Source: Candidatus Rifleibacteriota bacterium
GTDB lineage: Bacteria; Muiribacteriota; UBA6191; JACPRK01; JACQZM01
Assembly (NCBI GenBank): GCA_016213885.1
Contig: JACQZM010000067.1
Span: 1-57,367 of the forward strand
DNA: 57,367 bases
Reading direction: 5' to 3'
The notes beneath the pieces are model-generated. The model was not told the DNA's origin. It did not search any database and saw nothing but the letters and a program-made list of their open reading frames with translations. Positions 13,012 to 43,888 of this stretch are shown in pieces; position 1 is the first letter of the stretch, and each line of letters opens with the position of its first letter. The position numbers and the translations under genes were made by a program.

Positions 13012-14690
13012 CACCCCTGGGTCACCCTGACGACCTCCTCGACGGTGGTGGTGCCCCGGTCCACCTTGCGGAAGCCGTCCTGTCTCAAGGTGGTCATCCC
13101 TTCGGCGACGCACCGGGCCTTGATCACGCCGGAGGGAGTGCGGGTGGTGATCAGCTCCCGGATCGGGTCGGTCACCACCAGGAGCTCGAAGATCCCCAGC
13201 CGGCCCAGGAAGCCGGTCTTCCGGCAGTTGTCGCAGCCGGCGCCGACGTAGACGTGCTTCTGGGTGAGCCCGTACTCCCGCTTGAGCTTCTCCGGCACCG
13301 TCTGGGAGGCCCTGCATTCCGGGCAGATGACCCGGACCAGCCGTTGCGCCAGGATGCCGATCACCGACGAGGAGATGAGATAGGGCTCCACCCCCATGTC
13401 GATGAGCCGGGTCACGGCGCCGGAAGAGTCGTTGGTGTGCAGCGTCGAGAAGACCAGATGGCCGGTGAGCGACGCCTGGACCGCGATCTCCGCGGTCTCG
13501 TGGTCCCGGATCTCGCCGACCATGATCACGTCCGGGTCCTGGCGGAGGATCGACCTCAACCCCTCGGCGAACGTGAGCCCGATCTGGGGCTTCACCTGCA
13601 TCTGGCTCACGTTCTTGATCTGGTTCTCGATCGGGTCCTCCACCGTGATGATGTTCTTCTCCGTGGTGGAGATGGACGTCAGCGCCGAGTACAGGGTGGT
13701 GGACTTGCCGGAGCCGGTGGGGCCAGTGACCAGGATGATGCCGTAGGGCGCTTCGAGGAGCTTGGCGAACGTGGCCAGCGTGTCTTCCAGGAAGCCCAGC
13801 TCGGTCAGGTTGAACACGGACCGGCTCTTGTCCAGAAGACGCATCACCACCCGCTCTCCGAACGCCGTGGGTAGCATCGAGACGCGGATGTCCACCTTCC
13901 GATCGCCGGCCACGATGTTCATCCGGCCGTCCTGGGGCAGCCGGGACTCCGCGATGTTGAGCCCCGACTGGATCTTGATGCGGCTGATCAAGGCGGACTG
14001 GACGTGCTTGGGAGGGGACGGGGCGTCGTACAGGATCCCGTCGATCCGGTACCGTACCTTCAGGTGCTTCTCGTACGATTCGATGTGGATGTCGGAAGCC
14101 CGGGCCTTCATCGCCTCGAACAGGATCGAGTTCACCAGCTTGATGACCGGCGCCTTCTGGGCCACATCGAGGAGGTTCTCCGAGGTCTCGAACTCCTCGA
14201 TCGCGTAGGTGCCGGCCTCTCCGTCCAGATCCTGGATCGCTCGCTGGGTGAGGTCCTTCTGGCTCTCCAGGAAGGCGTTCAGCGCCTGGTTGATCACCCG
14301 GGCCGCGGCCAGGACCGGCACCACGTCGGCCTTGAGCAGACTCTTCAGGTCATCCAGCGGGTGCGGGTCGAACGGGTCGGAGACGGCCACCCGGACCTCG
14401 CCGTTGCTGCGCTTCAGCGGAAGCAGCAACCGGGTGCGGAGGAAGTCGATGGGCAGCCCGGCCAGGATCTCCGGCTCCAGGTCCTCCGGTCGGATCTGGG
14501 CGACCCAGTCGAAGCCGATCCGGGAGGCCACCGTGGAGAGAAGGTCCTCCTCGCTGATCGTCTTGTTCTCCAGGAGCACCTCTTCGACGCGGCGCCCGGG
14601 ACTCTGCTTGGCCACGAGGATCGCCTCGTCCAGGTCCTCCTGGGAGATCAATCCCCGCGACTTGAGGATCTCGCCGATGAGTTGGGCCAC
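13011..14690 (-). CDS. gspE: Type II secretion / type IV pilus assembly ATPase GspE
   Basis: 559 aa with an N-terminal T2SSE_N-like domain, Walker A GPTGSGKSTT, the Asp/His box region, and the tetracysteine motif CPECRAS...GAGCDNCRKTG. Confidence 0.95.
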   Translation of the reverse strand: MAQLIGEILKSRGLISQEDLDEAILVAKQSPGRRVEEVLLENKTISEEDLLSTVASRIGFDWVAQIRPEDLEPEILAGLPIDFLRTRLLLPLKRSNGEVRVAVSDPFDPHPLDDLKSLLKADVVPVLAAARVINQALNAFLESQKDLTQRAIQDLDGEAGTYAIEEFETSENLLDVAQKAPVIKLVNSILFEAMKARASDIHIESYEKHLKVRYRIDGILYDAPSPPKHVQSALISRIKIQSGLNIAESRLPQDGRMNIVAGDRKVDIRVSMLPTAFGERVVMRLLDKSRSVFNLTELGFLEDTLATFAKLLEAPYGIILVTGPTGSGKSTTLYSALTSISTTEKNIITVEDPIENQIKNVSQMQVKPQIGLTFAEGLRSILRQDPDVIMVGEIRDHETAEIAVQASLTGHLVFSTLHTNDSSGAVTRLIDMGVEPYLISSSVIGILAQRLVRVICPECRASQTVPEKLKREYGLTQKHVYVGAGCDNCRKTGFLGRLGIFELLVVTDPIRELITTRTPSGVIKARCVAEGMTTLRQDGFRKVDRGTTTVEEVVRVTQG

Positions 14691-14802
14691 TCTTCAAGAC
14701 CTCTCTACGATCCAGGCACCCGCGACGCTCGCTCTGTCAGCGGTCCGCACTGTTCAAGTCTAGCTCGCGGCGAGGCGCGCCGCCGCATCGTGCGCCGGCC
14801 GG

Positions 14803-16962
14803 TCATTGCTTGAACGTCTCGCTGAACTTGGGCGCCTTGTGGAAGATCCTCCGGTACGGGGCGCCGCCGCTGCGCTTCACGTCCTGCTGGAGCTGCTGGG
14901 TCGTGACCGGCAGACCTCGATCGTGCGGCCAGGTGTGTCCGGGCATGTCCCGCCACTGCAGCGGCCACTCCTCCGCCTTGGTCACCCGACGCGCCGCGAA
15001 CCCGTCCCGCACGATGTGGGGGGTCAAGAAGACCAGGAGGTCCTTCTTGTCGGAGTTCTTGTTGCGGCTCTGGAACAGCTTGCCCACGATCGGGAGATCG
15101 CCGATGCCGGGGATCTTCGACACCTGCTTGCCCTTGCTCTCCACCAGGAGCCCGCCGATGACCAGCGTCTCCCGGTCCTTGACCACCACCTCGTTCTCCA
15201 CGGAGGTCTTGGTGAACACCGGCTGCTGGAACGGGCCGAAGCTGATCGTCCCTTCGGCCCCCTCCACTCGGCCCTTGATCTCCGCCTTGAGCTTCAGCGA
15301 GATGAAGTCGCCCTTGGTGATCCGCGGCGTGATCTCCATGGTCAGGCCGAGGTCCTCCGAGGTGAAGTTCGCGATCGGCACCTGACCCGGCTGCGTGGTC
15401 TGGGCGTATCCCTGGAGCACCTGCACCTTGGACCCCACGGTGATCTTGGCCGTGGAGTTGTCGGCGGCCATCAGGCGTGGCGCCTGCAGCACGTTGGACC
15501 GGTTGTCCTGCTTGAACAGGTTGATGAGGTACTGGATCTTCGATCGCTCCGCGAAGTTGCCCTGGGCCGCCGCGTTGACGTCGAAGCTGCCCGGCGCCAG
15601 CACGCCCACGTGCATGCCTCCGGTGGCGGTGCCGCCGAAGAACCCGGAGATCGCCCCGGTGTTGCCCAGGCCGAACACCCGCGTGTTGTCCTGGTCGGCC
15701 GGGATGATGTTGAGGTCGGCGCCGATCTTGTTGGCCATGTTCTGGGTGAGCTCCACGATCAGCCCCTCGACCAGCACCTGGGGCCTGAGCGTATCGAGCT
15801 TCTGCAGCAGCTTCAGGATGTCCTGGTACTTGGACTGGCTGGCCACGACGATCAGCGAGTTGGTCGTCTCGTCGGCGATCACCTTGGTCTGGCTCTGGCC
15901 CTTGCCCTGGCCCTGGCTCGATTCCATGCCGGAGAGGATCTTCTCCACCTTGGTGGCGTCCCCGTACTCCATCCGGTAGTGATGGACGTTCACCCCGTCG
16001 GCCGGCGTCACCGGGTTGTCCAGGAAGTGGACCAGCTCCTCCACCTTGGAGAGCATCTCTCCGGAGAAGCTCGACAGGATCAGCGACTGGGTCCTGGCGT
16101 CCGCGATGACGTTGAACTGCACCGCCGGGTCGGTCGAGGCGCCCACCTTGAACGCCTGGTTGACCTGGTTGGCCACGGCTTCCGCATCGCTGTACTGGAG
16201 GTGGACCACCTTCACCGTCGGGGTGTAGACGTCCGACACGTCCAGCTGCTCGATCAGCGCCACGAAGGTCTTCACGTCCTCCTCCAGGCAGATCAGGAGG
16301 ATCGAGTTGGTCCGGTCGTCGGAGAAGAGCGCCGGCTTGGCCAGCTTGGACTCTCGGCTGCCCGGATCGGCCTCGCCCTCGGCGCGCTTGGTGATGATCT
16401 GGGTGACCTTCTCGGCCAGCGCCTTGGCCTGGGCGTGGTTCACCTTCACGCTGGTGATCTTCCTGACCGGCCCGGACACGTCGAGCTCCTTGATGATCTC
16501 GGCGATGCGTCTCAGGTTCAATTCGTTATCCACGGCGAAGAACATGTTGCCCGGGACGTACGGCAGGATGGTGTTGCCGGGGCTGGTCAAGAACTTGATG
16601 ATCTGGAGGATCTCGTTCACCCCGACGTGCTTGAGCTTGAAGATCTGGATGAACATCCGCTCCAGGTCCTGGCCCGGTCGGCCAGCGGGCGGCGGCAGCT
16701 GCTTCTGGAACGGGGTGAAGGCGCTCTTGTTGGGGGCGTCCTTCTTCACGATCCGCCGTACCTTCTCCCCGATGTACTCGATGGAGAACCCCTTGAACTC
16801 CAGGATCGCCATCAGCAAGAGCTCCGCCTCCGCCGCGGAGATCTTGTTGTTCGCGGGCCCCAGCACCGTCACCTTGCCGGTCAGCGTCTCGTCGACCATG
16901 TAGCTGATCTTGAGCCGGTCGGAGACGAGCTTCACGATCGATCGGATGTCCACGTCCTTCAT
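14803..16962 (-). CDS. gspD: Type II secretion secretin GspD (core; the true 5' end is further upstream, see next feature)
   Basis: N0/N1-type domains (DIRSIVKLVSDRLKISYMVDETLTGKVTV) and a secretin C-domain (VLQAPRLMAADNSTAKITVG, VVKDRETLVIGGLL, IPGIGDLPIVGKLF). Homology continues upstream of the first ATG (..DTFEVE-MKDVD), and no signal peptide exists in this frame. Confidence 0.9.
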   Translation of the reverse strand: MKDVDIRSIVKLVSDRLKISYMVDETLTGKVTVLGPANNKISAAEAELLLMAILEFKGFSIEYIGEKVRRIVKKDAPNKSAFTPFQKQLPPPAGRPGQDLERMFIQIFKLKHVGVNEILQIIKFLTSPGNTILPYVPGNMFFAVDNELNLRRIAEIIKELDVSGPVRKITSVKVNHAQAKALAEKVTQIITKRAEGEADPGSRESKLAKPALFSDDRTNSILLICLEEDVKTFVALIEQLDVSDVYTPTVKVVHLQYSDAEAVANQVNQAFKVGASTDPAVQFNVIADARTQSLILSSFSGEMLSKVEELVHFLDNPVTPADGVNVHHYRMEYGDATKVEKILSGMESSQGQGKGQSQTKVIADETTNSLIVVASQSKYQDILKLLQKLDTLRPQVLVEGLIVELTQNMANKIGADLNIIPADQDNTRVFGLGNTGAISGFFGGTATGGMHVGVLAPGSFDVNAAAQGNFAERSKIQYLINLFKQDNRSNVLQAPRLMAADNSTAKITVGSKVQVLQGYAQTTQPGQVPIANFTSEDLGLTMEITPRITKGDFISLKLKAEIKGRVEGAEGTISFGPFQQPVFTKTSVENEVVVKDRETLVIGGLLVESKGKQVSKIPGIGDLPIVGKLFQSRNKNSDKKDLLVFLTPHIVRDGFAARRVTKAEEWPLQWRDMPGHTWPHDRGLPVTTQQLQQDVKRSGGAPYRRIFHKAPKFSETFKQ

Positions 16963-18014: not shown

Positions 18015-18914
18015 ATGTCCCCCAGGAAGGTCCGACCCGAACTGCTCATCGGGGCCCACGTCGGCGGCGGTCTGACCGGCGCCGTGGCCAGGGCGCTTCA
18101 GATCGGAGCCGGGCCTGTCCAGATCTTCATCGGGTCCCCCCAGACGTGGAGGGAGCCCAGCCCCAAGGACGACGACTTCGCCAGCTTCTCGGCGGGGTTG
18201 AAGCAGCACGCCCTGGGGCCCGCATTCGTCCACGCCAGCTACCTGGTCAACCTGGCGACCTGCGACCCGACCAACCGGGACAGGTCGGTGAACAGTCTGC
18301 GCTCCCAGCTGAGGCTGGCGGACCGGGCCGGGGCGGCCGGTCTGATCTTCCACCCCGGATCGGCCGGCCAGGCGTCGGAGGAGCAGGCGCTGACCAACGT
18401 GATCCGGGCGGTGGAGGCGGTGCTCGACGGCTACACCGGCTGCTGCCGTCTCGTCCTGGAGGTCTGCGCGGGCCAGGGGCAGACCATAGGCGATCGGTTC
18501 CCGGAGCTCGCGGCCGTTCTGGACGCTCTGGGCCGGGACAGACGCCTCGGCGTGTGCTGGGACACCTGTCACCTGTTCGCGGCGGGCTACGACGTGGCCA
18601 CGGCGGACGGTCTGGCCCGGACCGTGGACGAGTTCGAGACCACGATCGGGTTCGAATGGCTCTGCGCGATCCACGCCAACGACTCCAAGACGCCGCTGGC
18701 CTCCCGGAAAGACCGGCACGAGAACATCGGGAAGGGTCACATCGGCGCGGAGGCGTTCAGCCGGATGCTCCACCACCCGCGGCTCAGACCGTTGCCGTGG
18801 ATCCTCGAGGTGCCGGGCTTCGACGGAAACGGCCCGGATCGCCTCAACGTGGAGATACTGAAGGGCCTGGCCCGTGTCCAGTCTTCGTCTCGACGGAGAG
18901 GTAGAGGCCGTTGA
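18015..18914 (+). CDS. nfo: Endonuclease IV (deoxyribonuclease IV, AP endonuclease family 2)
   Basis: Metal-site motifs are typical of Nfo: HASYLVNLA, FHPGS, WDTCHLFAAGYD, IHANDSK, DRHENIG. Confidence 0.9.
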   Translation: MSPRKVRPELLIGAHVGGGLTGAVARALQIGAGPVQIFIGSPQTWREPSPKDDDFASFSAGLKQHALGPAFVHASYLVNLATCDPTNRDRSVNSLRSQLRLADRAGAAGLIFHPGSAGQASEEQALTNVIRAVEAVLDGYTGCCRLVLEVCAGQGQTIGDRFPELAAVLDALGRDRRLGVCWDTCHLFAAGYDVATADGLARTVDEFETTIGFEWLCAIHANDSKTPLASRKDRHENIGKGHIGAEAFSRMLHHPRLRPLPWILEVPGFDGNGPDRLNVEILKGLARVQSSSRRRGRGR

Positions 18915-21657
18915 GGTAGCCGGTCCGGGGCATGGACGAGAGCTGCACCTGCGGCAGCCCGGGCAGGTGCAGGTAATGCACCTCCACGGTGGCCCGATCG
19001 GTGGGCAGGAGCCGCGCCGGGAACGCGAACGTCTGGACCCCCCACCGGAACCGGGAGCCTCCGGCCGCCCCGGCTCCCTCTCCGGCGACACCGGGATCCG
19101 GATCGTCCATGGCGTCGATCCAGTCCCCGGTCCCCGGGTTCGTCACGAGGAACCTGAGGGACGCTCCGTCCTTGCCCTTCAACCCCAGGCTGAAGGCGTA
19201 GGCCGGTCCGAGGAGACAGAACACGGCCCTGAGCGTCGCCACCCCGGTTCGAGCCCCGGCAGGCAGGTGCTCGAGCTCGTACGATCTGGAATGGGCGAAC
19301 TGCGGGGTCACGTTCTTGCAGTCCTTGAGGTCGACCTTGGGGAACAGCCATCCGAACACCGTGAACATCTGGGCGAAGCTGCAGATCAGCTCCGGGGAAC
19401 GGCTGTCGCTGCTCCACCACGCACTGGGACTGGCCGAGACGGCGACCTCGCCGGGGGCCGCCGGGATCGGCTGCCCGATCTCGAACAGGGCGCGGGAGCT
19501 TCTGACGAACCGGGCGTAGCTCGTGGAAACGCCGAGCACCCGGTCGTCCTCTTGCGTCCCGATGAGGATATCGAAGTACTGCAGCTTCAGCAGCGCCTCG
19601 TACAGGTTCGTCTTCTTCTCGTCGGTCACGTCCGCGGAGGTGAAATAGGTGTTTGCGAACGGCTTGAAAGCCAGGTAATCCCTGAAGAAGCGCTCCCCGG
19701 ACAGCTCCTCCTCGATCCGCTTCAGAAAGAACCCCTTCTCGGCTCGACGGACCGCCACGGTCTCACCCACGGAGGTGGCGAGCACCCCCCAGCCCTCGCC
19801 CCTGGCCCTCCTGAAATCGGTATCCGTCTTGAACTCCTTCAGGCCGGTCAGCCTCGCGAGCAGCGGCTTGGGATTGAACGATCCCAGCCCGGCGACGATA
19901 CGATCCGCGATCTCGGCGATCGACACCACGTTCCAGCTCACGGTCATCGACGGAGACGGCTGCAGCTGGACGTGGGTTCCCGGCGGCAGCGCCGCCGCCG
20001 ACACCGGCAGCGCGAACATCGTTCTTCCTCCCGCGACGCTGGTGGGACGGAACCGACGCTGGGACTGGCTCCCTCCGAAGACCAGCACGGCCTCGCAGGG
20101 CCCGGTCGAAGGCACCGACACCGCGCAGGTGGGCTCGCCATCTTTGCCGGGCACCGGCCACAGCGCCTCGGTCTCGGGGACGGTGGCGGTGCCGAACCAG
20201 CCGACCTTCCCGTCGGCGTCAGGGACCACCACCAGGTAGGTCGTGCCGGCCTCCAGGTCTTTGACCCTGATGAGGTGGTTCTTCCGCTCCTGGTCTTCGC
20301 TGGCGATCTTCCACGGCAGGGAGTCCTTCAGCAGCGTCTGCACCAGGGCGGCGTCCACGGACCCGGCCGCTGCCCCGGCAAGCTTGCTCGTCAGGACCTT
20401 GCCGGAGCTCCCGCGCTGGCTCTCCCAGGTCGCCTCGAGCGTCCCGCCTTGCCAGATCGTGATCTTGACGGCCCGGACCTGGTCGGCCCTGGTCCGCAGG
20501 GAGAAGACCAGGACTAGCACCACGGCGATCGCGCCGACCACCCCCAGCGCGGCGACTCCGAACGACCGACCACCAGGCTTGACCGAGACCGGGGGACGGG
20601 AGGTGGCGATGGTGTGGTGAGACCGGTCCAGGTCTCGCCGGCGAGGGTTCGCGGACGGCACGGCGACGGTCCGGCCGTAGCCTTGCCGGTCTGCTGGCGG
20701 CCGGCCAGCCGGCGGCGCGGTCGGGCCGGCGCCTCCCCCATCGTCGACCTTGTGGACCTCGCCCGACAGCCTCACGACCTCGGTCGCGAACTCCGACTGC
20801 AGCGCCCCCGTGGAGTTGCCCCAGCGGAGCAGCACCACCTGGGCGCCCATCTCCTTGGCCGATGGGAATCGACGGCTGGGTTCCTTCTCCAGCGCCCTCA
20901 TGACGAGCGCATCCACAGCGTCGGGCACCTCCGGATTGAGCCGTCTGAGCGGTCTCGGCGCCTGGTGGAGCTGCAGCTCCAGCGTGGCGATCTCGGTCTT
21001 CCCCATGAGCGGCGGCGCGCCGGCCAGACACTCGTAGAGGGTGCACCCCAGACTGTAGATGTCGCTGGCAGGGCTCACGGCGCCGCCCCGGATCGTCTCC
21101 GGAGCCATGTACGCGGGCGTGCCCAAAACCAGGTTCGCCTCCGTGGCGAAGCTGTCGCGGCCCTTGGCCTTGGCCACGCCGAAGTCCATGAGCATGGGCT
21201 CGCCGTTGTCGAGCCTGAGCAGAACGTTGGCAGGCTTGATGTCGCGGTGGACGACCTGGTGGACGTGGGCGAGCTGGAGCCCGGCCAGGATCCCGTCCGC
21301 CAGCGCCAGGGTGCGCTCCGGGGTCAACCGCCCCTGCACCGCGAGCTCCTTGGACAGGTCTTTCCCCTCGATGAATTCGAAGACGAGGAACGGCGTCTCC
21401 CTCTCCCATCCCGACGAGTACAGCCGGACGATGTTGGGGTGCTTGAGGGTGGCACAGACCCGCGCCTCCTCCTGGAACCTCAACCCCGCCCCGCTGTCCG
21501 GTGAGTCCTGGAAGCTGCCCAGGAACTTGATCGCGACCTCACGGGAGAGCTGGAGGTCCCAGGCCAGGTAGACCTGGGCCATGCCGCCGGTGCCGAGGAG
21601 CCTGGTGATCCGGTACTTCCGCTGGAACTCCCTCGAGAACTGCCTCTCACCGGGCAT
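18844..21657 (-). CDS. Hanks-type Ser/Thr protein kinase with one TM helix and a large C-terminal domain of unknown function, presumably extracytoplasmic
   Basis: I place the start at ATG 21657-21655 (MPGERQFSREFQRKYRITRLLGTGGMAQVY). Kinase motifs are AIKFL, HRDIKPANVLL, DFGVAK and GTPAYMAPE. The TM helix is FGVAALGVVGAIAVVLVLVFSL. Confidence 0.9.
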   Translation of the reverse strand: MPGERQFSREFQRKYRITRLLGTGGMAQVYLAWDLQLSREVAIKFLGSFQDSPDSGAGLRFQEEARVCATLKHPNIVRLYSSGWERETPFLVFEFIEGKDLSKELAVQGRLTPERTLALADGILAGLQLAHVHQVVHRDIKPANVLLRLDNGEPMLMDFGVAKAKGRDSFATEANLVLGTPAYMAPETIRGGAVSPASDIYSLGCTLYECLAGAPPLMGKTEIATLELQLHQAPRPLRRLNPEVPDAVDALVMRALEKEPSRRFPSAKEMGAQVVLLRWGNSTGALQSEFATEVVRLSGEVHKVDDGGGAGPTAPPAGRPPADRQGYGRTVAVPSANPRRRDLDRSHHTIATSRPPVSVKPGGRSFGVAALGVVGAIAVVLVLVFSLRTRADQVRAVKITIWQGGTLEATWESQRGSSGKVLTSKLAGAAAGSVDAALVQTLLKDSLPWKIASEDQERKNHLIRVKDLEAGTTYLVVVPDADGKVGWFGTATVPETEALWPVPGKDGEPTCAVSVPSTGPCEAVLVFGGSQSQRRFRPTSVAGGRTMFALPVSAAALPPGTHVQLQPSPSMTVSWNVVSIAEIADRIVAGLGSFNPKPLLARLTGLKEFKTDTDFRRARGEGWGVLATSVGETVAVRRAEKGFFLKRIEEELSGERFFRDYLAFKPFANTYFTSADVTDEKKTNLYEALLKLQYFDILIGTQEDDRVLGVSTSYARFVRSSRALFEIGQPIPAAPGEVAVSASPSAWWSSDSRSPELICSFAQMFTVFGWLFPKVDLKDCKNVTPQFAHSRSYELEHLPAGARTGVATLRAVFCLLGPAYAFSLGLKGKDGASLRFLVTNPGTGDWIDAMDDPDPGVAGEGAGAAGGSRFRWGVQTFAFPARLLPTDRATVEVHYLHLPGLPQVQLSSMPRTGYLNGLYLSVETKTGHGPGPSVSPR

Positions 21658-21857
21658 CAGAGTCGTCTCCAACCGGGACCGGGCGCCGGACCCGAAGGAG
21701 GCCCGGCACGGCCCCAGAGTATTATACCGCTGGATCGACCGGTTCTCCCGGATCACGAGGATCCGCTCCAGGTGCCCATCTCCACGGCCGCAGCCGCTGC
21801 CCGGGCTCGAAAGTTGTCGCAAAACCGCTCCATCAGGGGGTAGCATTCGTCTCGGCC

Positions 21858-22511
21858 ATGAAACCAGCTCCACCCACCCTGCTGGAAATGAAGGTCCAGC
21901 TCCAGAAGCATCAGATCGATCGACTCCGGGGCACCTATGCGGATCTGATGGAGTACCCGCTCTACGTCAACCTGGCGGAGTTCTTCTTCACCGACCTCTA
22001 CTACGTGGGCGACCGGACCGAGAGAAACGAGAGCTTCCTGAAGCTCTACACCCACTTCGAACAGCTGTTCGGCAAGGTTCTCCTGAGGGGCATCCACGAC
22101 CTCCTGGAGTTCCACGCTCTCTCGGAGGACCTCGACGACGACGTGGCGCGGTTGCTCGTCAAGATGGGGGTGGGGCTGGGGTTCACCAGCGAGGACTACG
22201 AGCGGGCCTACCGCTACGCCGACAACTACCCGGAACGGGTCCATCAGATAGAGATCATGGAAGTGAACCTGTACTTCGTCCACAGGATGTCCCAGCGGCG
22301 GATCATCGGGGTGCTGCTCTCCACGATGCAGGCCACGGCCCGGCTTCTGGGCGCCAGCCCCATGATCGATTTCCTGGACCGCGGTTACACGGCGTTCCGC
22401 ACCGTGAAGGACATCTCGTACTTCGTGACCACGATCAAGACGCGGGAACAGACACGGCTGGACCGCATCTACAACGACATCCCGCTGGACGCTCGGTTCG
22501 CCGGGAAGTAG
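21858..22511 (+). CDS. Hypothetical protein, 217 aa
   Basis: Clean ORF with strong third-position G/C bias and mixed-charge helical composition (..LYVNLAEFFFTDLYYVGDRTERNESFLKLYTHFEQLFG..). I cannot assign a family with confidence. Confidence 0.7.
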   Translation: MKPAPPTLLEMKVQLQKHQIDRLRGTYADLMEYPLYVNLAEFFFTDLYYVGDRTERNESFLKLYTHFEQLFGKVLLRGIHDLLEFHALSEDLDDDVARLLVKMGVGLGFTSEDYERAYRYADNYPERVHQIEIMEVNLYFVHRMSQRRIIGVLLSTMQATARLLGASPMIDFLDRGYTAFRTVKDISYFVTTIKTREQTRLDRIYNDIPLDARFAGK

Positions 22512-22529: not shown

Positions 22530-23381
22530 TCAGCTCCGCGAGAGGATCCAGATCTCTTTCTGGGCGGCGATGCGGGTCGCGGCGCCCCGGCTCAGAAGAT
22601 GCTCCAGCGCCGTGCGGGCGGTGCTCCTGTCCCACGGGAACCAGCGGGCCACCCCCTTCTCGGGAGCCATCACCGCGGCCCTGAGCGCCGCCTGGGCCAG
22701 GCCGGCCCACGACTCCTCGAGGCTCCGGGGCACCAGTCGCGCATCCACGTTCCTGGAGGCGAACCGGTCACAGGTCTCCCAGATGACGCCCTGGCTGTCC
22801 TTGGGATTGGCGGGGTCGTCCCAGGAGACGATGAGGCAGTAGTTCTCCAGCTCCTCCCGGGCCAGCTTGAACGCCTTGCTATCGCCGACCGTGCGGACCC
22901 CCAGCTCCTTCTTGAGCCGGTCCAGTCGCATCGGCCCCTGCCGGTCGAGCACGCCGAGGAACTTGCGTCCCATGGGCGAGAGGAGCTCCGCGTCCCGGCC
23001 CTGACCGCCGAAGTGACGGGCCACCGGGTGCACCTGGGGCCAGAGCTGCCGCACCACCAGCGTGGCCTCCTGCCGGAACAGCTTCAGCTGGATGATGTCG
23101 GCGTCGGCGAGGATGCTCGGCAGCCACCCCTTCAGCACCGTGGCCGGCTCCGTGTAGACCCGCTCCGCGCCGCTGGCCCGCCGACCGATGATAGGGTCCA
23201 CCAGGTTGGGCAGCTCCGTGGCGGCGTTGACGCTGACCATGCCGAGCTCTTGCACCATGACCCGGGCCTGGGCGGCGCCGTGGATCTTCAATTCGGGCCG
23301 TCGCCGGTGGAGTCGGTCCTGTCTCTCCTGCGCCTCGTGGAACGTCTGCGGCACCTCACCATCTCGGATCAGGGTGGCCAT
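22530..23381 (-). CDS. Hypothetical protein, 283 aa
   Basis: Start at ATG 23381-23379 is preceded by GGAGG 5 nt upstream (MATLIRDGEVPQTFHEAQERQ...). The coding bias is good, and I do not recognise a family. Confidence 0.65.
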   Translation of the reverse strand: MATLIRDGEVPQTFHEAQERQDRLHRRRPELKIHGAAQARVMVQELGMVSVNAATELPNLVDPIIGRRASGAERVYTEPATVLKGWLPSILADADIIQLKLFRQEATLVVRQLWPQVHPVARHFGGQGRDAELLSPMGRKFLGVLDRQGPMRLDRLKKELGVRTVGDSKAFKLAREELENYCLIVSWDDPANPKDSQGVIWETCDRFASRNVDARLVPRSLEESWAGLAQAALRAAVMAPEKGVARWFPWDRSTARTALEHLLSRGAATRIAAQKEIWILSRS

Positions 23382-23642
23382 CACATCCTCCGGAGGCGCC
23401 GCGACCGTCTCGCAACAGCATGCGCTGAACAATAGAGGAGCGGTCAGCAGCCCGTCAAGGTCGGATCCGATTCGTGGCCCCACGACAAGATCCAGGCCCG
23501 GGCCGGCACGTTCTGACGTGGGAGGCGATCATTTGCTCCGACCCGGAGCCGCCCTTTTGAACCGACCGGGCCGCTCCCGGGGCCGCCGATGCCGATGGGC
23601 TCCCGGAAAGGTTTCCAGGAACTTTCATGCCCGGTCTTCCGT

Positions 23643-23657
23643 AGTCTAGGCTAGACT
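23643..23657. promoter_or_regulatory. Perfect 7+1+7 palindrome AGTCTAG-G-CTAGACT about 45 nt upstream of the Pup-like ORF (candidate operator)
   Basis: Read directly from the sequence. It lies in the 217-nt gap between the divergent genes starting at 23381 and 23701. Confidence 0.25.
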
Positions 23658-23700
23658 GAACCGTTGGCAGAAGTGAGACTCCAAGGAGGTCTCTCGACCG

Positions 23701-23868
23701 ATGAAGCCCGCACTGAAACCGGTTCCCAGGGATGAGACGGCCCGCTCCGATCCGTCCCCCCGGATCCGGAACCGCTCGAGCCTCTTGCGCCGCAAGATCC
23801 TCAAGGACGCGCGGCAAGCATCCAAGGGGTACATCCTGGCGTTCACCGTGCCCGCTGGCGGAGAGTGA
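23701..23868 (+). CDS. Pup/UBact-like small protein, 55 aa, C-terminus ...PAGGE
   Basis: Not in the ORF track because it is under 60 aa. AAGGAGG at 23683-23689 lies 11 nt before the ATG. By hand count, 46 of 55 codons end in G/C. Product: MKPALKPVPRDETARSDPSPRIRNRSSLLRRKILKDARQASKGYILAFTVPAGGE. Its TGA overlaps the GTG start of the downstream Pup-ligase-family gene (GTGA). Confidence 0.6.
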   Translation: MKPALKPVPRDETARSDPSPRIRNRSSLLRRKILKDARQASKGYILAFTVPAGGE

Positions 23869-24812
23869 CCGAAGGGGCTCGTCTGTCTCCTCGCAAAGGC
23901 GTACTGGGTCTCGAGACCGAGTACGCCTTCGTCTTCACCCCGGAGGTGGGTTCCAGCGCCCCGGTCCAGGAGAGGATCTTCGAGGCGCTCTCCGAGGTTC
24001 TGAAAGGCCAGTGCACCTGTCAGGACGCCGCCTATCGCAAGGGAGGGTTCTTCCTGGCGAACGGCGGCCTTCTTCATTATGAAGCCGAAGCGGACGCTCT
24101 CCATCGGGGGCTCCTGGAGATGGCCACACCGGAGTGCTCCACGGTCCGGGAGGCGCTGGCCCACCACCGGGCCCAGGAGCTCGTCATCGCCAGGCTCCTC
24201 CCGGGCATCCGGGAGCGGCTCACGAAGAGCAGCTTCGCCGGGACCCTGGTGATCGGCAAAGCGTCGTCGGACTACCAGGGACACACGTTCGGCACCCACG
24301 AGAACTACCTGGTGGAGGACCGTCCGGGTCCGGTCCGCCTGGCCGCCCTGGGCCTCTGGATCGTGGTGTTCCAGCTCGTTCGCCTCCCGCTGACCCTCCT
24401 CTACACGGGGCTGACCGTCCTGGCGCTGGTCCTCTTCGGCCTGGTGTTCGCGACCACCATGGCCGTCGCCCTGGGACAGGCGATCCGCCGCCGGCCCACC
24501 GGAGATGAGGCGGTCGAGCCGGCCATGGTCCGGTGGCTCGACCGGGCGATCAAGGGGCTGGTCACCGTGGCCGGCCGCCTCCAGATCCTGGAGCACAGGT
24601 ACCTGCTCCCACCGGCGTCCCGTCTCGTCTCCCCCTTGCTGTTCCACCGGTTCAGGGACGAGCTCGTGACGTTTCTGGTCACCCGGCTGGTGTTCACCGG
24701 ACCGGGCTGGCTCCGGACCGACCGTCCCGGGGAGGGGGCCCGGTTCGTCCTGTCGCCCAAGGCGTCCGCCATCGGCGAGGTCGCTCAGGTGTACTGCGAC
24801 CCGGCGCGATAA
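23865..24812 (+). CDS. Pup-ligase/deamidase family (PafA/Dop-like) protein, N-terminal portion, terminated by an in-frame TAA
   Basis: GLETEYAF, NGGLL...LEMATPEC and GTHENYLV match PafA/Dop landmarks as I recall them ([33 protein letters not shown]). It contains a two-helix hydrophobic insertion at residues about 158-206. Confidence 0.8.
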   Translation: MTEGARLSPRKGVLGLETEYAFVFTPEVGSSAPVQERIFEALSEVLKGQCTCQDAAYRKGGFFLANGGLLHYEAEADALHRGLLEMATPECSTVREALAHHRAQELVIARLLPGIRERLTKSSFAGTLVIGKASSDYQGHTFGTHENYLVEDRPGPVRLAALGLWIVVFQLVRLPLTLLYTGLTVLALVLFGLVFATTMAVALGQAIRRRPTGDEAVEPAMVRWLDRAIKGLVTVAGRLQILEHRYLLPPASRLVSPLLFHRFRDELVTFLVTRLVFTGPGWLRTDRPGEGARFVLSPKASAIGEVAQVYCDPAR

Positions 24813-24902
24813 CCGATCGTCGACCTGAAGAACCTGTTCAGGGGACTCTTCACGCTGCTCTCCCCCAGGAAACGCCTCCACATCGCCTTCTCCGATACGA
24901 AC

Positions 24903-25865
24903 ATGTCGGAGTACGCGACCTGGCTCAAGCTGGCCACCACGCACCTGGTCGTGCGGATGCTCGAGGCGGGCTACCTTCCGGCGGGATGTCGTCTGGACGA
25001 TCCGCTTTCAGCGCTGGACCAGGTCGATCAGGACCTGACGTTCCAGGAGCGGCTGGCGATCCGCGGCGCCCCCGCCCGCACCGCCCTGGAGATCCAGGCC
25101 GCCTTCCTCGACACCGCCCGGCGATACGCCTGCGACCGGGAGCCCGACGACCCCCAGGTCGAGAGGACGCTGGGCGAGTGGGCCCAGGTGCTGGATCTGC
25201 TGGCCCACGACCGGACGGCGCTGGCGGACCGCCTCGACTGGGTGGCCAAGCACGATCTGATGGACGAGGCGGTGGAGCCGGTGGGTTGGGATGCGGTCTC
25301 GAGAGCGCTCGGACCGATCCGCTGGCTGGAGGAGCACAACATCGGCCTGGGTCGGGTGGTCGACCAGCCGGATCAGGTGGGCGGGTTCCTCCAGAAGAGG
25401 CTGGGAGCCGACTTCGCAGCGCTCGCGGAGCGGATGAGGGTCGCCGATCTCGCCTGGGATTCGCTTCCGGCGGTCTACCGGATGTTCTACCAGCTCAAGA
25501 AGATCGACCTCAGGTACCACGAGATCGGGGAGGAGGGCGGTTACTACCTCCAGATGGAGAGGGAGGGCCTGTTCCGGCGGGAGCTCTCGGCCCGGGAGAT
25601 CGAACGGGCGGCGGAGCATCCGCCGGAGCAGACCAGGGCAGCGGCCAGGGGCCACTATATCCTGGAAGCGAACCGGCTCAAGCTCCCGGCCTTGGTCGGC
25701 TGGGACGAGCTGATCGTGCCGTCTCGATTCGCCATCATCTCGATGCCCGATCCGCTCTGCCCGACGCCGCCGGTGGCGCTCGCCGGGTTCGAGTCGGAGA
25801 GCTTCGTCCGGACCGCGCTGCGTCTGGTCTGGTTCATCCCCCGGCTCGTCTCCCGCGGGGCCTAG
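24903..25865 (+). CDS. Pup-ligase/deamidase family protein, C-terminal portion (same frame as 23865-24812; homology starts directly after the TAA at 24813)
   Basis: The sequence upstream of the first ATG, in frame, reads PIVDLKNLFRGLFTLLSPRKRLHIAFSDTN-MSEYATWLKLATTHLVVRMLEAG. This matches the PafA/Dop region RPIINTRDEP...RLHVIVGDSNMSE...LKVGT..LVL.MIE.G. Later, LDWVAKHDL also matches. Confidence 0.8.
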   Translation: MSEYATWLKLATTHLVVRMLEAGYLPAGCRLDDPLSALDQVDQDLTFQERLAIRGAPARTALEIQAAFLDTARRYACDREPDDPQVERTLGEWAQVLDLLAHDRTALADRLDWVAKHDLMDEAVEPVGWDAVSRALGPIRWLEEHNIGLGRVVDQPDQVGGFLQKRLGADFAALAERMRVADLAWDSLPAVYRMFYQLKKIDLRYHEIGEEGGYYLQMEREGLFRRELSAREIERAAEHPPEQTRAAARGHYILEANRLKLPALVGWDELIVPSRFAIISMPDPLCPTPPVALAGFESESFVRTALRLVWFIPRLVSRGA

Positions 25866-25934: not shown

Positions 25935-26103
25935 ATTTGAAGTCGCGCTCTGGAGAAGGGAAGAGGTGGGGATCCGGATTGAGGTCGCGCTCGGGAGAAG
26001 GGGAGAGGAGGGGAGCCGGATTGAGGTCGCGCTCGGGGGCGCGACTCGGACCCGGCGAGGCGCCGGGTCTTGCGACTCGGATCCGGCGAGGCGCCGGGTC
26101 TTG
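25935..26103. repeat. Mosaic intergenic repeat: about 2.5 tandem copies of a ~43-bp unit (ATTGAGGTCGCGCTCGGG-purine-rich tail) followed by two copies of a ~32-bp hairpin unit
   Basis: Tandem units lie at about 25935-25977, 25978-26019 and 26020-26039. Hairpin units GCGACTCGGACCCGGCGAGGCGCCGGGTCTTG lie at 26041-26072 and 26073-26103, each with a 9-bp stem (GACCCGGCG/CGCCGGGTC) and a 3-nt loop. The same composite recurs at 48647-48762. Confidence 0.85.
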
Positions 26104-27126: not shown

Positions 27127-29232
27127 GTGACGGACGGCCATCGGCAACGAGGTGCTCCGGAGTTCTCCCCGGCGTTCCTCAAGAAGTACACCATCCTGGC
27201 CCCCCTGGGCGCGGGGAGCATGGGCACCGTGTACCTGGCGACGCAGCACCCGCTCCGGCGAGAGGTGGCGGTGAAGATCCTCACCGAGTTCACCGACGAG
27301 GGTCGCGCCCGGTTCGAGCGGGAGTACCGGATCATGGCGTCGTTCAGCCACCCGGCCATCGTCAGGCTGTACGACTTCGGCCAGGACGGAGACCTCCACT
27401 ACCTGGTCTGCGAATACGTGAACGGCGGCACCGTTCGATCGCTGATGGACAGGGGGCCCGTATCGCTCTCCCAGGCTCTCCGGCTCTCCGCGGACCTGGC
27501 CGACGCCCTGGCCTACGCCCACGAGCACGGCGTGATCCACAGGGACGTGAAACCGGCCAACGTCTTCTTGACCGCGACGGCCCAGGTCAAGCTGGCCGAC
27601 TTCGGTCTGGCCCGGCCGGTGGCGCGAGGCGGGACGTTGACGCAGAGCAGCATGGGGGTGGGCTCCCCGCTCTACATGGCCCCGGAGCTCGTGGTGGGAG
27701 AACGGGCCACCGCCCAGGCCGACCAGTACTCGCTGGGCGTGATGATGTACCAGCTCATCGCCGGACGGTCCCCGTTCGCGGGGGCGGACCACGTCAGGCT
27801 CCTGTTCGCCAAGGTCGAATCGACGGCTCCGGCGCTGGCCGACATGTGTCCCGGCGTTCCGGCCCAGGTCGACGAGATCGTGAACCGGGCCCTGGCCAGG
27901 GACCCGGAGGCCCGCTTCCCGTCCATGGCGGAGCTCGCCCTGAGGCTCGGGGTCGCGGCAGGATCGCTCCAGCCCGCGGCCAGAAGAGAGCGGCCGCCCG
28001 CCGAGAACCGGACCGATCCAGCGTCTTGCTCCGGCCAGCCGGCTACGAAGGCCAGCGGCCCGTCGGCCAGCGGGCCGCGAGCCACCTCGCGCACACGCTC
28101 GCACAGCCGGCTCGTCGGGATCTGTCTGGCCGTGGCGGCCATGGTGGTCGCCAGCCGGCTCCTGTGGCCTCCCGCCGGGCCAAAGACCCAAAGCGGCGGT
28201 CGATCGCCCCGATCGGGATCACCGTCGGCCAGCGATCGGCCCGGCGACCTGTCCGCCCGGCTGGCGGCGCAGAGCCAGAAGCTGGACCAGGACTGTCTCG
28301 CCTTCCAGCGGGACAAGAGGGCCCGGATGAAGCGGGTCTACACCGACAGGGTCCTGCAGGTCCACATGTCGTCGTCCGCCCCGTTCGACGTGGCCCAGCT
28401 GAACAGGCTGCTGATGATGCTCTCGCAGCTCATCCGCGCCGCCGACGCCGCCGAGGGTGGCCCGCTCTGGCTGGAGATCGAGGCGGCCGGCGGCTCCGTG
28501 CTCAGAGAGGCGTTCGCCTGCCAGTTCGCCCTGGACGGCAAGCAGAAGGCGACCCTGAGAAAGCACCTGGATGGAATCGCCGAGGCGGCGGCCTACAAGG
28601 GGTTGAACCCGTATCGCCTCTGCCTGGCCAAGGCGCTCCTCGCCACGATCCGCACCGGCGAAGTGGGCTCCTACCAGCGGAGGAGGGACCAGGCGCGGGA
28701 GCTGATCGCCGCCTCCCGGCTGCTGGACGCCGTTCCCTGGACGGCCCAGGTGGTGGCCAGACGGGTCGTCATGCTCTCCAGGGCAGCCAAGCTGTGGGAC
28801 TCCGCCCAGGACACGGCGGGCTTTCTCGAGAAGAAGGTCGAGCCCAGGGAAGACCTGGCCAGGGCCGCGCGCGAGAGAGTGGTCGAGCTGGCCAGGCCGC
28901 TCCTCTCCGTGGAAGACCCGGTGGCCAAGGGACAGGCCTGGAAGATGGCGGTGCTGAGCGTGTTCCACGATTGCGCCAGGCTGCTGATCGCATCCGGCGC
29001 GGACAGGTCCGCCCGCGAGGCAGCGCTCTCCGATCTGATGGTGCTGTCGTGGTTCAAGCTGCGGCAGGAGCGGATAGACCCGCTGGAGGTGGAGACCATC
29101 GTCGCGGATCTCGATGAGCTCCTGAAGATCGAGAAGGAGATGGGCACCCGGCTCGGGCGGATCGACCTCGAGGCGGAGAGACGACGGCTTGCGACGATGC
29201 CGGCCGGCGGTGGCGGCGCCGGGCCCCGTTGA
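27127..29232 (+). CDS. Hanks-type Ser/Thr protein kinase with one TM helix and a helical C-terminal domain
   Basis: GTG start. Motifs: GAGSMGTVY, AVKIL, HRDVKPANVFL, DFGLARP, GSPLYMAPE. The TM helix is LVGICLAVAAMVVASRLL. Confidence 0.9.
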   Translation: MTDGHRQRGAPEFSPAFLKKYTILAPLGAGSMGTVYLATQHPLRREVAVKILTEFTDEGRARFEREYRIMASFSHPAIVRLYDFGQDGDLHYLVCEYVNGGTVRSLMDRGPVSLSQALRLSADLADALAYAHEHGVIHRDVKPANVFLTATAQVKLADFGLARPVARGGTLTQSSMGVGSPLYMAPELVVGERATAQADQYSLGVMMYQLIAGRSPFAGADHVRLLFAKVESTAPALADMCPGVPAQVDEIVNRALARDPEARFPSMAELALRLGVAAGSLQPAARRERPPAENRTDPASCSGQPATKASGPSASGPRATSRTRSHSRLVGICLAVAAMVVASRLLWPPAGPKTQSGGRSPRSGSPSASDRPGDLSARLAAQSQKLDQDCLAFQRDKRARMKRVYTDRVLQVHMSSSAPFDVAQLNRLLMMLSQLIRAADAAEGGPLWLEIEAAGGSVLREAFACQFALDGKQKATLRKHLDGIAEAAAYKGLNPYRLCLAKALLATIRTGEVGSYQRRRDQARELIAASRLLDAVPWTAQVVARRVVMLSRAAKLWDSAQDTAGFLEKKVEPREDLARAARERVVELARPLLSVEDPVAKGQAWKMAVLSVFHDCARLLIASGADRSAREAALSDLMVLSWFKLRQERIDPLEVETIVADLDELLKIEKEMGTRLGRIDLEAERRRLATMPAGGGGAGPR

Positions 29233-41785: not shown

Positions 41786-43843
41786 ATGACAACCGAGAGC
41801 AAGTTCAAACCCTACGTGCCGGCCGACAGCGACATGCCGGAGTTCACCACCCGCGCGCTGATCATCGGACTCATCATGTCCGTGGTGCTCGGCGCGGCGA
41901 ACGCCTACCTGGGCCTGAAGGCCGGGATGACGATCGCAGCCACGTACCCGGCGGCCGTGATCGGGATGGCGGTCCTCAGGATGATGAAGGGGACCGTCCT
42001 CGAGGAGAACTTCGCCCGGACCGTGGGCTCCATCGGCGAGTCGGTGGCAGCCGGCGCGATCTTCACCCTGCCGGCCTTCTACATCGCCGAGATCTGGAAG
42101 GACTTCGCCACGGTGGGTCACTATCTCGAGTCCACGGCGATCATGCTGGCCGGCGGCATCCTCGGCATCATGTTCGTCGCTCTGCTGCGGCGAGTCATGG
42201 TGGAAGACGTGGACCTGCCGTTCCCCGAGTCGGTGGCGGCGGCCGAGATCCACAAGGCCGGCCAGGCCGGCGGCACCGGGGCGGTCTACCTGTTCGGCGC
42301 CATGGTCGTCGGCGCCGTGATCCAGTCGCTGGGGCAACTCCGGGTGATCGCCACCGAGTGGACCGGCTACGTCCTGTTCGAAGCCAAGAAGATCCTCCTG
42401 GTCAAGTCGAAGATCACCGCCACCGCCCAGAGCGGACTCGTCCTGAGCTCGCCAGGGGTGAGCCCGGCCTACGTCGGCGTGGGCTACATCATCGGACCGA
42501 CCCTGGGGTCGCTCAACTTCTCCGGAGGCCTCCTGGCCTGGGGTCTGTTCGTCCCGATCATGACCTACTTCATCGCGCCCGGGGTGTTCCCGAAGCTGGA
42601 CGGGGTCTCCACGTCGCAGTGGATGACGCTCTCCGCCGACGTGTGGCGCTACATCGTCCGGCCGATCGCCATCGGTGGGATGCTCGTCTCGGCGGCCTAC
42701 ACCCTGTTCAAGATGCGCAACAGCCTGATCACCGGGATCGGTCGCTCCATCTCCGACGTCAAGAAGGCCGCGGCCACCGGTGAAGAGATCGTCGCCCGGA
42801 CCGACAAGGACATCGCGTTCAACAAGATCCTGATGGGGATCGCCGGTTCCGCGGTGTTGACCCTCGGGATCTACTACTACTTCGCCCAGAGCTTCGTGGC
42901 CGCCCTGGTCGCCACGATCGTGATGGTCATCGCCGGCTTCTTCTTCGCCGCCGTGTCGGGGTACCTGGTGGGGATCATCGGCTCCTCCAACAACCCGATC
43001 TCGGGGTTGACGCTCTCCACCCTGATCGTGGCGGCGTTGCTGATGGTCGCTCTGGGGATGAAGGGCGAATACGGCGTGGCCGCGGTGCTCGGCGTGGCCG
43101 GGGTCGTGTGCGTGTCGTCCGCCGTGGCCGGCGAGATGCTCCAGGACCTGAAGGCCGGGCACCTCCTCGGTGGTACTCCATGGAAGATGCAGATCGGCGA
43201 CATCATCGGAGTGGCTCTGGCCGCGCTCGTGATGTTTGGCCCGCTGGTGGTGCTGCACCAGGGAGACATCGCCGCGGGGAAGATGGCCAAGGAGGCGTAC
43301 GTGGGCGGCTTCGGCGGACCGAAGCTGGCAGCCCCCCAGGCGAGTCTGATGGCCATGCTCTCCAAGGGGATCGTCGGCGGGGAGATGGCATGGCCCTTGA
43401 TCATCGTCGGGATGCTCATGGGCCTGGGGTTCATCCTGATGCAGGTCAGGAGCCCCATGCTGGTCTCGGTGGGCATGTACCTCCCCCTCGACACGACGTT
43501 CGCGATCTTCATAGGCGGTCTGATCAAGGGCATGGTGGACATGCTCAACGAGCGCCGGAAACACAACGATGCCCAGAAGGCCCGGGTCGAGAACACCGGC
43601 GTGCTGCTCGCGTCGGGTCTGATAGCCGGCGAGGCGCTCATCGGGCTCCTGTTCGCTGCCATGGCGTTCCGCGAGATCGACTACGGCGGCTGGTTGCCCG
43701 GCAAGTTCGCCGAGGGCGTGCTGCCGCTACCGTTCGCCTACAGCCTCCTGGTCTTCGCGTTGCTCATCTGGATCCTCGTCCGGATTCCGGTCGCGAACGC
43801 CGGATCTCCGGATGAGCCGGCTCCTCCGAGCGGCACGTTCTAG
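41786..43843 (+). CDS. OPT family oligopeptide transporter
   Basis: 685-aa polytopic membrane protein with a GAAGGAG RBS. The N-terminus EFTTRALIIGLIMSVVLGAANAYLGLKAGMTIAATYPAAV is typical of bacterial OPT transporters. Confidence 0.9.
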   Translation: MTTESKFKPYVPADSDMPEFTTRALIIGLIMSVVLGAANAYLGLKAGMTIAATYPAAVIGMAVLRMMKGTVLEENFARTVGSIGESVAAGAIFTLPAFYIAEIWKDFATVGHYLESTAIMLAGGILGIMFVALLRRVMVEDVDLPFPESVAAAEIHKAGQAGGTGAVYLFGAMVVGAVIQSLGQLRVIATEWTGYVLFEAKKILLVKSKITATAQSGLVLSSPGVSPAYVGVGYIIGPTLGSLNFSGGLLAWGLFVPIMTYFIAPGVFPKLDGVSTSQWMTLSADVWRYIVRPIAIGGMLVSAAYTLFKMRNSLITGIGRSISDVKKAAATGEEIVARTDKDIAFNKILMGIAGSAVLTLGIYYYFAQSFVAALVATIVMVIAGFFFAAVSGYLVGIIGSSNNPISGLTLSTLIVAALLMVALGMKGEYGVAAVLGVAGVVCVSSAVAGEMLQDLKAGHLLGGTPWKMQIGDIIGVALAALVMFGPLVVLHQGDIAAGKMAKEAYVGGFGGPKLAAPQASLMAMLSKGIVGGEMAWPLIIVGMLMGLGFILMQVRSPMLVSVGMYLPLDTTFAIFIGGLIKGMVDMLNERRKHNDAQKARVENTGVLLASGLIAGEALIGLLFAAMAFREIDYGGWLPGKFAEGVLPLPFAYSLLVFALLIWILVRIPVANAGSPDEPAPPSGTF

Positions 43844-43888
43844 TCGGAGCTCTCGATCGCCCGGGCCGGGCCCCTCGAGGGATCGCCC

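Follow-up and report, generated by a model that had tools for sequence, protein, structure and literature searches.

A Pup-like small gene beside an interrupted, membrane-type PafA/Dop-family ligase gene without linked proteasome genes

Can a small Pup-like protein and a ligase of the PafA/Dop family form a protein-tagging module of their own, away from any proteasome? The question is raised by contig JACQZM010000067.1, a stretch of 57,367 bases that is referred to here as the window, in which a 55-codon open reading frame (ORF) at 23701-23868 runs directly into a gene of the PafA/Dop family, both on the plus strand. An earlier note, made from the letters of the window, had proposed that the two represent a proteasome-independent tagging module in a non-actinobacterial genome. 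In our analysis the coupling to a PafA/Dop-family gene and the lack of linked proteasome genes hold; the idea is not new, the class having been predicted in 2008, and the ligase gene is interrupted by an in-frame stop codon. Our reading is that the pair is probably a two-gene, proteasome-unlinked pupylation-like module of an Isosphaerales-like planctomycete, composed of a Pup-type modifier and a membrane-held PafA-type ligase.

The small gene encodes a Pup-like protein of 55 residues (MKPALKPVPRDETARSDPSPRIRNRSSLLRRKILKDARQASKGYILAFTVPAGGE), in the following called the modifier. A Shine-Dalgarno sequence, AAGGAGG, lies at 23683-23689 on the plus strand, 11 nt 5' of the ATG, 46 of the 55 codons end in G or C by our recount, and the TGA shares 4 nt (GTGA) with the GTG of the ligase gene at 23865; on all these points, as on the translation and the GGE end, the earlier note was accurate. 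The N-terminal half of the modifier is basic, variable and probably disordered, while the last ~24 residues, up to the C-terminal AGGE, are conserved. With its length and its G-E end the protein falls within the range set for Pup, namely 50-90 residues with a C-terminal G-[EQ].

The small ORF is also conserved beside homologous ligases in other genomes, which the same note had named as a check. In the related loci L001, L003, L006 and L007 a called gene of 50-81 codons stands immediately 5' of the ligase gene and on the same strand, separated from it by 9-150 nt, and the four translations end in RILKDARQASKGYILAFTVPAGGE, RILKDSRQASRGYIVSFTVPAGGE, KILKDSRINARSYIQAFSTPTTGE and DSRVQPKQYVKNFVAPGGGE. 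Equivalents of the Shine-Dalgarno sequence (GAGGAGG, AGGAGG or GAAGGAG) precede the orthologues in L001, L003 and L007 at similar spacing. A scan of GTDB genomes by ligase alignment, with a subsequent screen for ORFs that end in G-[EQ], added about 20 loci with the same order of the pair, from Planctomycetota, Myxococcota, Verrucomicrobiota, Vicinamibacteria, Leptospirales and Vulcanimicrobiota metagenome-assembled genomes (MAGs). The ligases of the window and of L001 share only 55% identity; in the small genes of the two loci 15 of the last 24 codons differ, 14 of them synonymously and one non-synonymously, and this 14:1 excess argues that the small gene encodes a translated, constrained peptide. 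A profile of the family retrieved 102 database clusters at E<=0.01, without a Pfam domain and, wherever a name is given, called 'hypothetical protein'; the consensus of 18 members reads I..D[SA]R....Y[LV].E..VP.GGE, with D36, G54 and E55 invariant and P51 nearly so. To judge from this conservation of sequence, the 55-codon ORF is a true, conserved gene whose product is Pup-like and has a C-terminal GGE. At locus L015, on a contig of low GC content with the label 'Bacillota bacterium' MAG, one further pair was found, made up of a membrane-type ligase (171-2273) and its small partner (KYVKNWKAPGGGE); either the pair is spread more widely than expected or the contig was binned wrongly.

The ligase frame extends from 23865 to 25865 and consists of two parts. 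The N-terminal part, of 315 codons (23865-24812, plus strand), closes at an in-frame TAA and matches the Pup ligase model PF03136 at 2.3e-24 and the PafA model TIGR03686 at 5.5e-17; the C-terminal part, of 350 codons in the same frame (24813-25865, plus strand), matches PF03136 at 1.5e-51, the Dop model TIGR03688 at 5.9e-40 and TIGR03686 at 1.3e-39. The profile search suggested for the downstream frames is thus positive for both halves, their PF03136 scores of 86.6 and 176.2 bits comparing with a gathering cut-off of 25, and they cover complementary stretches of the profile, the N-terminal part taking positions 3-199. The family landmarks that had been named for this frame (GLETEYAF, GTHENYLV, RLHIAFSDTNMSE and LDWVAKHDL) are all present: the N-terminal part holds GLETEY (23907-23924), the Glu of an HYEA motif, ATPEC and GTHENY, and the C-terminal part holds RLHIAFSDTNMSE and LDWVAKHDL together with a hydrophobic C-terminal tail.

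In order to place the ligase within the family, its relatives and their scores on the PafA and Dop models were compared. The closest full-length relatives (P0001-P0017) are 30-55% identical to it and 590-680 amino acids long, and those entries that bear a name are called 'PafA2 family protein' and come from Planctomycetota. On TIGR03686 the two window halves score 61.6 and 136.1 bits (cut-off 551.3); the intact homologue P0001 (55% identical) reaches 250.8 bits with the PafA model and a lower 189.2 bits with that for Dop. The C-terminal part also matches Dop and PafA chains in the PDB, with Dop ranking first among the sequence matches. An AlphaFold2 (AF2) model of P0001 (predicted local distance difference test score 87.7, predicted template-modelling score 0.87) finds its best Foldseek match in the PafA-Pup complex 4BJR (E 5.6e-31, template-modelling score 0.78 on the target), followed by the Dop structures 7OXV and 4B0R, and on this model the ligase clade is predicted to have the PafA/Dop fold. 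Positions that discriminate between PafA and Dop have been tabulated, and a Dop loop of ~37 residues preceding S/A-S/A-N-x-F-L-x-N-G has been defined (PMC7947786). No insertion is found at the position of this loop in the clade alignment, and the window ligase carries an ATP pattern at the discriminating Ser/Ala-Thr-Pro/Ala position.

The earlier note had overlooked a hydrophobic insertion of ~50 residues in the ligase. It spans residues 156-207 (nt 24330-24485, plus strand; PVRLAALGLWIVVFQLVRLPLTLLYTGLTVLALVLFGLVFATTMAVALGQAI), begins 5 residues past GTHENYLV, reaches a 19-residue Kyte-Doolittle mean of up to 2.56 and is, by hydropathy and alignment, predicted to form a helical hairpin in the membrane. 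Stretches of similar hydrophobicity are found in P0001, P0003, P0006, P0011, P0014, P0017, P0036 and P0054, and none is present in the canonical PafA P0028; in the AF2 model of P0001 two long helices (150-201 and 220-255) occupy the insertion site. The hydrophobic insertion is the defining feature of what we call the membrane-type ligase class. A second, clade-specific insertion, helical and ~70 residues long, was located by alignment in the C-terminal domain (residues ~468-541, nt 25266-25487, plus strand). Residues ~641-666 (25785-25862) form a hydrophobic or amphipathic tail (SFVRTALRLVWFIPRLVSRGA) that is conserved in the closest subclade (FLPHL, YLPHMVSPY) and has no counterpart in canonical PafA; this tail may provide a second membrane contact.

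To which family the small protein belongs was addressed with library models and by profile comparison. The window modifier gives no match to the Pfam Pup model PF05639 at E<=10, so that the Pfam search proposed in the earlier note came out negative, and none to the NCBIfam Pup model TIGR03687, whereas a Streptomyces Pup from locus L047, used as a positive control, matches at 3.1e-27 and 9.5e-21, respectively. In an hhalign comparison the modifier family matches canonical Pup weakly (score 17.3, P=0.0022, probability 12.9%, 34 columns), with the C-termini in register (DFVRAYVQ-KGGQ against KGYILAFTVPAGGE); none of 200 column-shuffled controls reached 17.3, the best shuffle scoring 14.4. Since a UBact-like control (L033) is itself missed by Pfam and NCBIfam, kinship to UBact was judged by profile comparison and not by a library model. 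Against three UBact-like peptides (L030, L031, L033), whose FVRRFRQ-x-G-[EQ] end we take to be the UBact end motif, the modifier family gives P=0.14 over 3 columns, by which UBact kinship is ruled out; canonical Pup compared with the same peptides gives P=1.9e-5. Of the Pup/UBact-like architecture claimed for the small protein, the Pup-like part stands, on the GGE end, and the UBact-like part falls. Because the Pup models fail, the match to the Pup profile is weak and similarity to UBact is nil, we assign the modifier, by its sequence profile, to a separate, divergent Pup-type family that is not UBact. The net charge differs as well, being +8 in modifiers of the window subclade, -16 in canonical Pup and -3 to -7 in Pirellulaceae-type members. 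The UBact-like ORFs used here (L030 4353-4616, L031 3414-3674 and L033 7293-7550; EEFVRRFRQETG[QE], EEFVIRFLQTEGQ) come from MAGs of Chloroflexota/Anaerolineae and lie between two Pup_ligase paralogues.

We then analysed the surroundings of the pair with respect to proteasome genes. Pfam scans of 30 large ORFs of the window returned topoisomerase subunits, TPR/HEAT proteins, a secretin and its ATPase, two Ser/Thr kinases, peptidases and transporters; a proteasome subunit, an AAA unfoldase and a further Pup_ligase gene were not among the products. When all ORFs of at least 120 amino acids from 14 canonical Pup or UBact loci were searched against the window with tblastn, the matches were confined to 23.8-25.8 kb and came from PafA and Dop paralogues; L047, which carries prcB and prcA (PF00227), was among the query loci and served as positive control. 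The statement that prcA/prcB, Mpa/ARC and a second PafA/Dop gene are lacking from the 57 kb is thus confirmed. Likewise, no proteasome or Mpa genes were found in the flanks of the related loci examined. When the ORFs lying up to 5 kb from 29 membrane-type ligases were clustered, no conserved neighbour besides the small gene emerged; the remaining clusters were antisense shadows of the ligase or generic Ser/Thr kinases, and a conserved partner in the form of a membrane protein, protease or ATPase was not found among them. As to the host, the window encodes a GyrB/ParE-type protein that shares ~65% identity with Isosphaeraceae proteins and 74-78% with metagenomic relatives, a similarity on which we read the host as a putative planctomycete outside the cultured genera (Isosphaerales-like).

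The window pair belongs to a class that was predicted computationally in 2008 for Rhodopirellula baltica and Plesiocystis pacifica, so that the idea of a proteasome-unlinked pair is not new. In that study Pup orthologues ending in G-[EQ], unannotated because of their small size, were described in the planctomycete Rhodopirellula and in Plesiocystis; these genes always adjoin a PafA gene and show no linkage to proteasome genes, and their ligases carry an insertion with four transmembrane segments directly after core strand 4 (Iyer, Burroughs and Aravind 2008, Biol Direct 3:45, PMC2588565). A role in modifying membrane-associated proteins was proposed, and a linked membrane-protein gene was noted (PMC2588565). 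For Rhodopirellula we relied on the published description, with the Pirellulaceae-type loci L020-L032 standing in for its sequences. The window shares with these two lineages the unannotated G-[EQ] gene adjoining a single PafA-family gene, the lack of proteasome linkage and the position of the ligase insertion, which follows core strand 4 (the HENY strand), and with Rhodopirellula, by the GyrB/ParE-type similarity, also the planctomycete lineage. It differs from them in that its ligase has two strong hydrophobic segments and not four, in the stop codon within the ligase gene and, over the 29 loci, in the lack of a conserved linked membrane-protein gene. The window subclade is further set apart by its basic (+8) modifier, by the highly conserved modifier end ILKDARQASKGYILAF[TN]VPAGGE and by the extra insertion of ~70 residues in the C-terminal domain of the ligase.

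Compared with the Pup-proteasome system of actinobacteria such as Mycobacterium tuberculosis and Streptomyces, the pair has in common the family and fold of the ligase, the adjacency of the modifier gene, and a small modifier with a C-terminal GG[EQ] whose conserved part aligns, if weakly, in register. In contrast to that system, it has no Dop paralogue, Mpa or 20S proteasome nearby, its ligase is predicted to be membrane-inserted and has Glu in place of the catalytic Asp, and its modifier has an inverted charge and lies outside PF05639 and TIGR03687. Pupylation in the absence of a 20S proteasome is known from Corynebacterium glutamicum, where it acts in ferritin disassembly (PMC8223512); unlike the window pair, however, Corynebacterium retains a canonical soluble PafA, Dop, ARC and an acidic Pup, none of which stands beside the pair. 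UBact of Nitrospirota and other Gram-negative phyla resembles the pair as a small G-[EQ] modifier beside PafA/Dop-family genes outside actinobacteria, but the UBact-like peptides of L030, L031 and L033 differ from it in lying between two ligase paralogues.

On this comparison a mechanism can be proposed by analogy with PafA. The predicted hairpin, placed beside the active-site HENY strand, would hold a PafA-type carboxylate-amine ligase at the cytoplasmic face of the membrane. The ligase groove would take up the C-terminal segment of the modifier, and ATP would serve to phosphorylate the gamma-carboxylate of its terminal Glu; no deamidation would be needed, because the modifier already ends in Glu. 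The modifier would then be transferred onto lysine residues, at their epsilon-amino groups, in membrane or membrane-proximal proteins. As no Mpa/ARC, 20S or Dop gene lies beside the pair, the tag would most likely be a regulatory or localisation mark, or a signal to another machine, and not a proteasome degron. In the neighbourhood of the pair no dedicated gene for a tag-removing enzyme was found.

Several observations weigh against such a module. The TAA at 24810-24812 interrupts the ligase ORF, and activity in this organism is therefore doubtful. A Glu (HYEA) replaces the catalytic Asp of PafA (LDVGS) and is followed by an insertion of ~10 residues; this Glu is kept through most of the membrane-type clade in the alignment. 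The 250.8 bits of P0001 remain far under the PafA equivalog cut-off of 551.3, as do its 189.2 bits under the Dop cut-off of 492.3, and the ligase has two strongly hydrophobic segments as compared to the four reported for Rhodopirellula and Plesiocystis (PMC2588565). On the side of the modifier, other members of its family fail PF05639 and TIGR03687 as it does, and with a charge of +8 as opposed to -16 the details of binding may differ. The absence of proteasome and Mpa genes covers the 57-kb window, with a distant locus possible. Finally, our literature search found no biochemical or experimental follow-up for any member of the class, and these lineages go unmentioned in a review of pupylation from 2021.

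Where the earlier note saw one intact gene, the PafA/Dop-family frame is indeed there, but reading through 23865-25865 meets an in-frame TAA at 24810-24812 (plus strand; VYCDPAR-stop-PIVDLKNL), and as written this copy would encode a truncated, inactive enzyme. Of 24 aligned homologues, canonical PafA included, 23 have Lys or Arg in the column of the TAA, and starting from AAA (Lys) one A->T substitution suffices to create the stop. A functional split enzyme is unlikely, since the next in-frame ATG, GTG or TTG (24903) comes 30 codons further on, beyond the conserved KPIVDLKN...KRLHIAFSD, with loss of conserved core residues. Either a nonsense mutation arose here very recently or the base is wrong.

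The chances are about evenly balanced that the TAA is a true nonsense mutation, the ligase a fresh pseudogene, the module in the process of being lost and the small gene an orphan remnant. The stop arises by substitution and not by an insertion or deletion, at a codon so consistently Lys or Arg, no usable restart codon follows within 30 codons, and the full-length database homologues all lack a stop at this site. Against this, the two ligase parts preserve every one of the 72 columns on which at least 13 of 14 clade members agree, and the fraction of G/C-ending codons, 0.84 and 0.90 in the two halves, keeps the bias of the genome; any inactivation must therefore be very recent. A second sequence that would bear out the mutation was not found at the site: exact-product look-ups of both ligase halves retrieved no database record, two independent Logan contigs of the same strain with an identical small protein (L009, L010) end 300-900 nt before it, and an exact DNA pattern spanning it had 0 matches in metagenome contigs. 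Flanking sequence 100% identical to the window is present in the runs SRR12113402 and SRR12113406.

It is also possible, if on balance somewhat doubtful, that the TAA stems from a mistake in assembly or sequencing or from a minority strain in the consensus, and that the population carries an intact 666-codon ligase and a working module. The otherwise perfect conservation of the gene, the sufficiency of one A->T change, with AAA Lys codons occurring elsewhere in the ligase gene, and the nature of the window as a whole metagenome-type contig would agree with this. Substitution errors are, on the other hand, uncommon in short-read consensus assemblies, and the searches just described supplied no independent sequence over the site in favour of an error either.

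The pair could alternatively belong to an ordinary Pup-proteasome system, with prcA, prcB, mpa and dop elsewhere in the genome and the tag acting as a proteasome degron as in actinobacteria. The portion of the genome examined amounts to 57 kb, and fold and chemistry of the ligase are PafA-like, which leaves room for this reading. We nevertheless consider it improbable: canonical loci cluster pup, dop, prcB, prcA and pafA, as seen in L047, whereas the 29 membrane-type loci share no neighbour but the small gene within ~5 kb; the modifier lacks the character of the acidic Mpa-binding helix (+8 against -16) and fails the Pup models; and proteasome linkage is missing in Rhodopirellula and Plesiocystis too (PMC2588565). 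It is very improbable that the enzyme is instead an amidase or depupylase of the Dop kind, or works on a substrate other than Pup, with the small ORF as a leader or regulatory peptide. In favour of this, its C-terminal half has similar scores with the Dop and PafA models, Dop comes first among the PDB sequence matches and the catalytic Asp is not kept as Asp. Against it, the Dop loop is missing, intact P0001 scores higher on PafA than on Dop and has PafA-Pup as its best structural match, a modifier already ending in Glu leaves no task for a deamidase, the invariant G-E and the P-x-G-G-E end across phyla fit a conjugated C-terminus and not a leader peptide, and with one paralogue per locus a hydrolase would stand alone with nothing to hydrolyse.

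Within the preferred reading of a membrane-held tagging module, the acceptor could also be of another kind. As the hairpin would pin the active site to the membrane and no unfoldase, proteasome or depupylase accompanies the pair, one might imagine transfer to the head group of an amino-lipid, such as phosphatidylethanolamine or an ornithine-type lipid, as an ATP-grasp-like analogue of Atg8 lipidation that would anchor a small basic peptide to the membrane; the argument is one of geometry, and we regard this as a long shot. In a weaker version, likewise argued from geometry, the tag would label proteins of the membrane for a machine other than the proteasome, such as FtsH.

The region upstream of the small gene contains a perfect 15-nt palindrome to which the earlier note had drawn attention (AGTCTAG-G-CTAGACT, 23643-23657, of 7+1+7 form). 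It is present as described, but the window holds 15 palindromes of this form compared with 9.1 +/- 3.2 in Markov-1 simulations, which is not significant, and the motif is absent upstream of orthologues and recurs only in the 100%-identical contigs L009 and L010. A role as operator was ruled out, as the palindrome is neither above chance nor conserved, no sigma-70-like promoter was called at it or upstream of it on the plus strand, and it is probably incidental. Another palindrome of the same form, TCTTGCG-C-CGCAAGA, counted among the 15, lies inside the small ORF at 23783-23797.

The immediate neighbours of the pair in the window encode an AlkZ-related protein and a metallophosphoesterase. The former is the divergent upstream gene (22533-23483, minus strand; PF24741, 7.8e-09), of which a homologue occurs in L003 (7733-8590) ~1.2 kb upstream of the pair; the 217-residue product of 21858-22508 has no Pfam match. 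Just 3' of the ligase stop, in the gap before the metallophosphoesterase gene, follow two tandem repeats, one with a 42-nt unit in 2.4 copies (25937-26037, 91% matches) and one with a 31-nt unit in 2.0 copies (26041-26103, 96% matches). Ser/Thr kinase genes lie at 18847-21873 (minus strand) and 27127-29229 (plus strand), and in the window as well as in the three closest loci (L001 3330-5021, L003 882-2831, L006 6649-7563) such kinases are found ~1.3-8 kb from the pair, with a PrkA-type kinase also in L003 and L006. Since planctomycetes are rich in Ser/Thr kinases and two of the loci are syntenic, this proximity may be due to chance. Further away, a T2SSE ATPase with an MshEN domain (type II/IV secretion; 13014-16962, minus strand) adjoins the secretin gene, both unrelated to the pair, and an OPT-family oligopeptide transporter gene (41786-44242, plus strand) is followed by one for a 118-residue PqqD-domain protein; PqqD-domain proteins are often peptide-binding partners in pathways for ribosomally synthesised and post-translationally modified peptides.

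For the window, the finding is mainly an annotation fix, by which the small gene is added and the ligase is flagged as interrupted. For the family it means that the membrane-type ligase and its partner constitute a widespread class, with 102 modifier clusters and members in Planctomycetota, Myxococcota, Verrucomicrobiota, Acidobacteriota and other phyla, whose modifier is still listed as 'hypothetical' in databases and is covered by no Pfam or NCBIfam model. The last Lys or Arg of the window modifier lies 13 residues before its C-terminus (a K, followed by GYILAFTVPAGGE), so that trypsin would leave a 13-residue remnant, GYILAFTVPAGGE, on the target lysine and not GGE, and standard pupylome searches would therefore miss the conjugates. 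If active, the pair would represent a form of Gram-negative protein tagging that takes place at the membrane and does without a proteasome.

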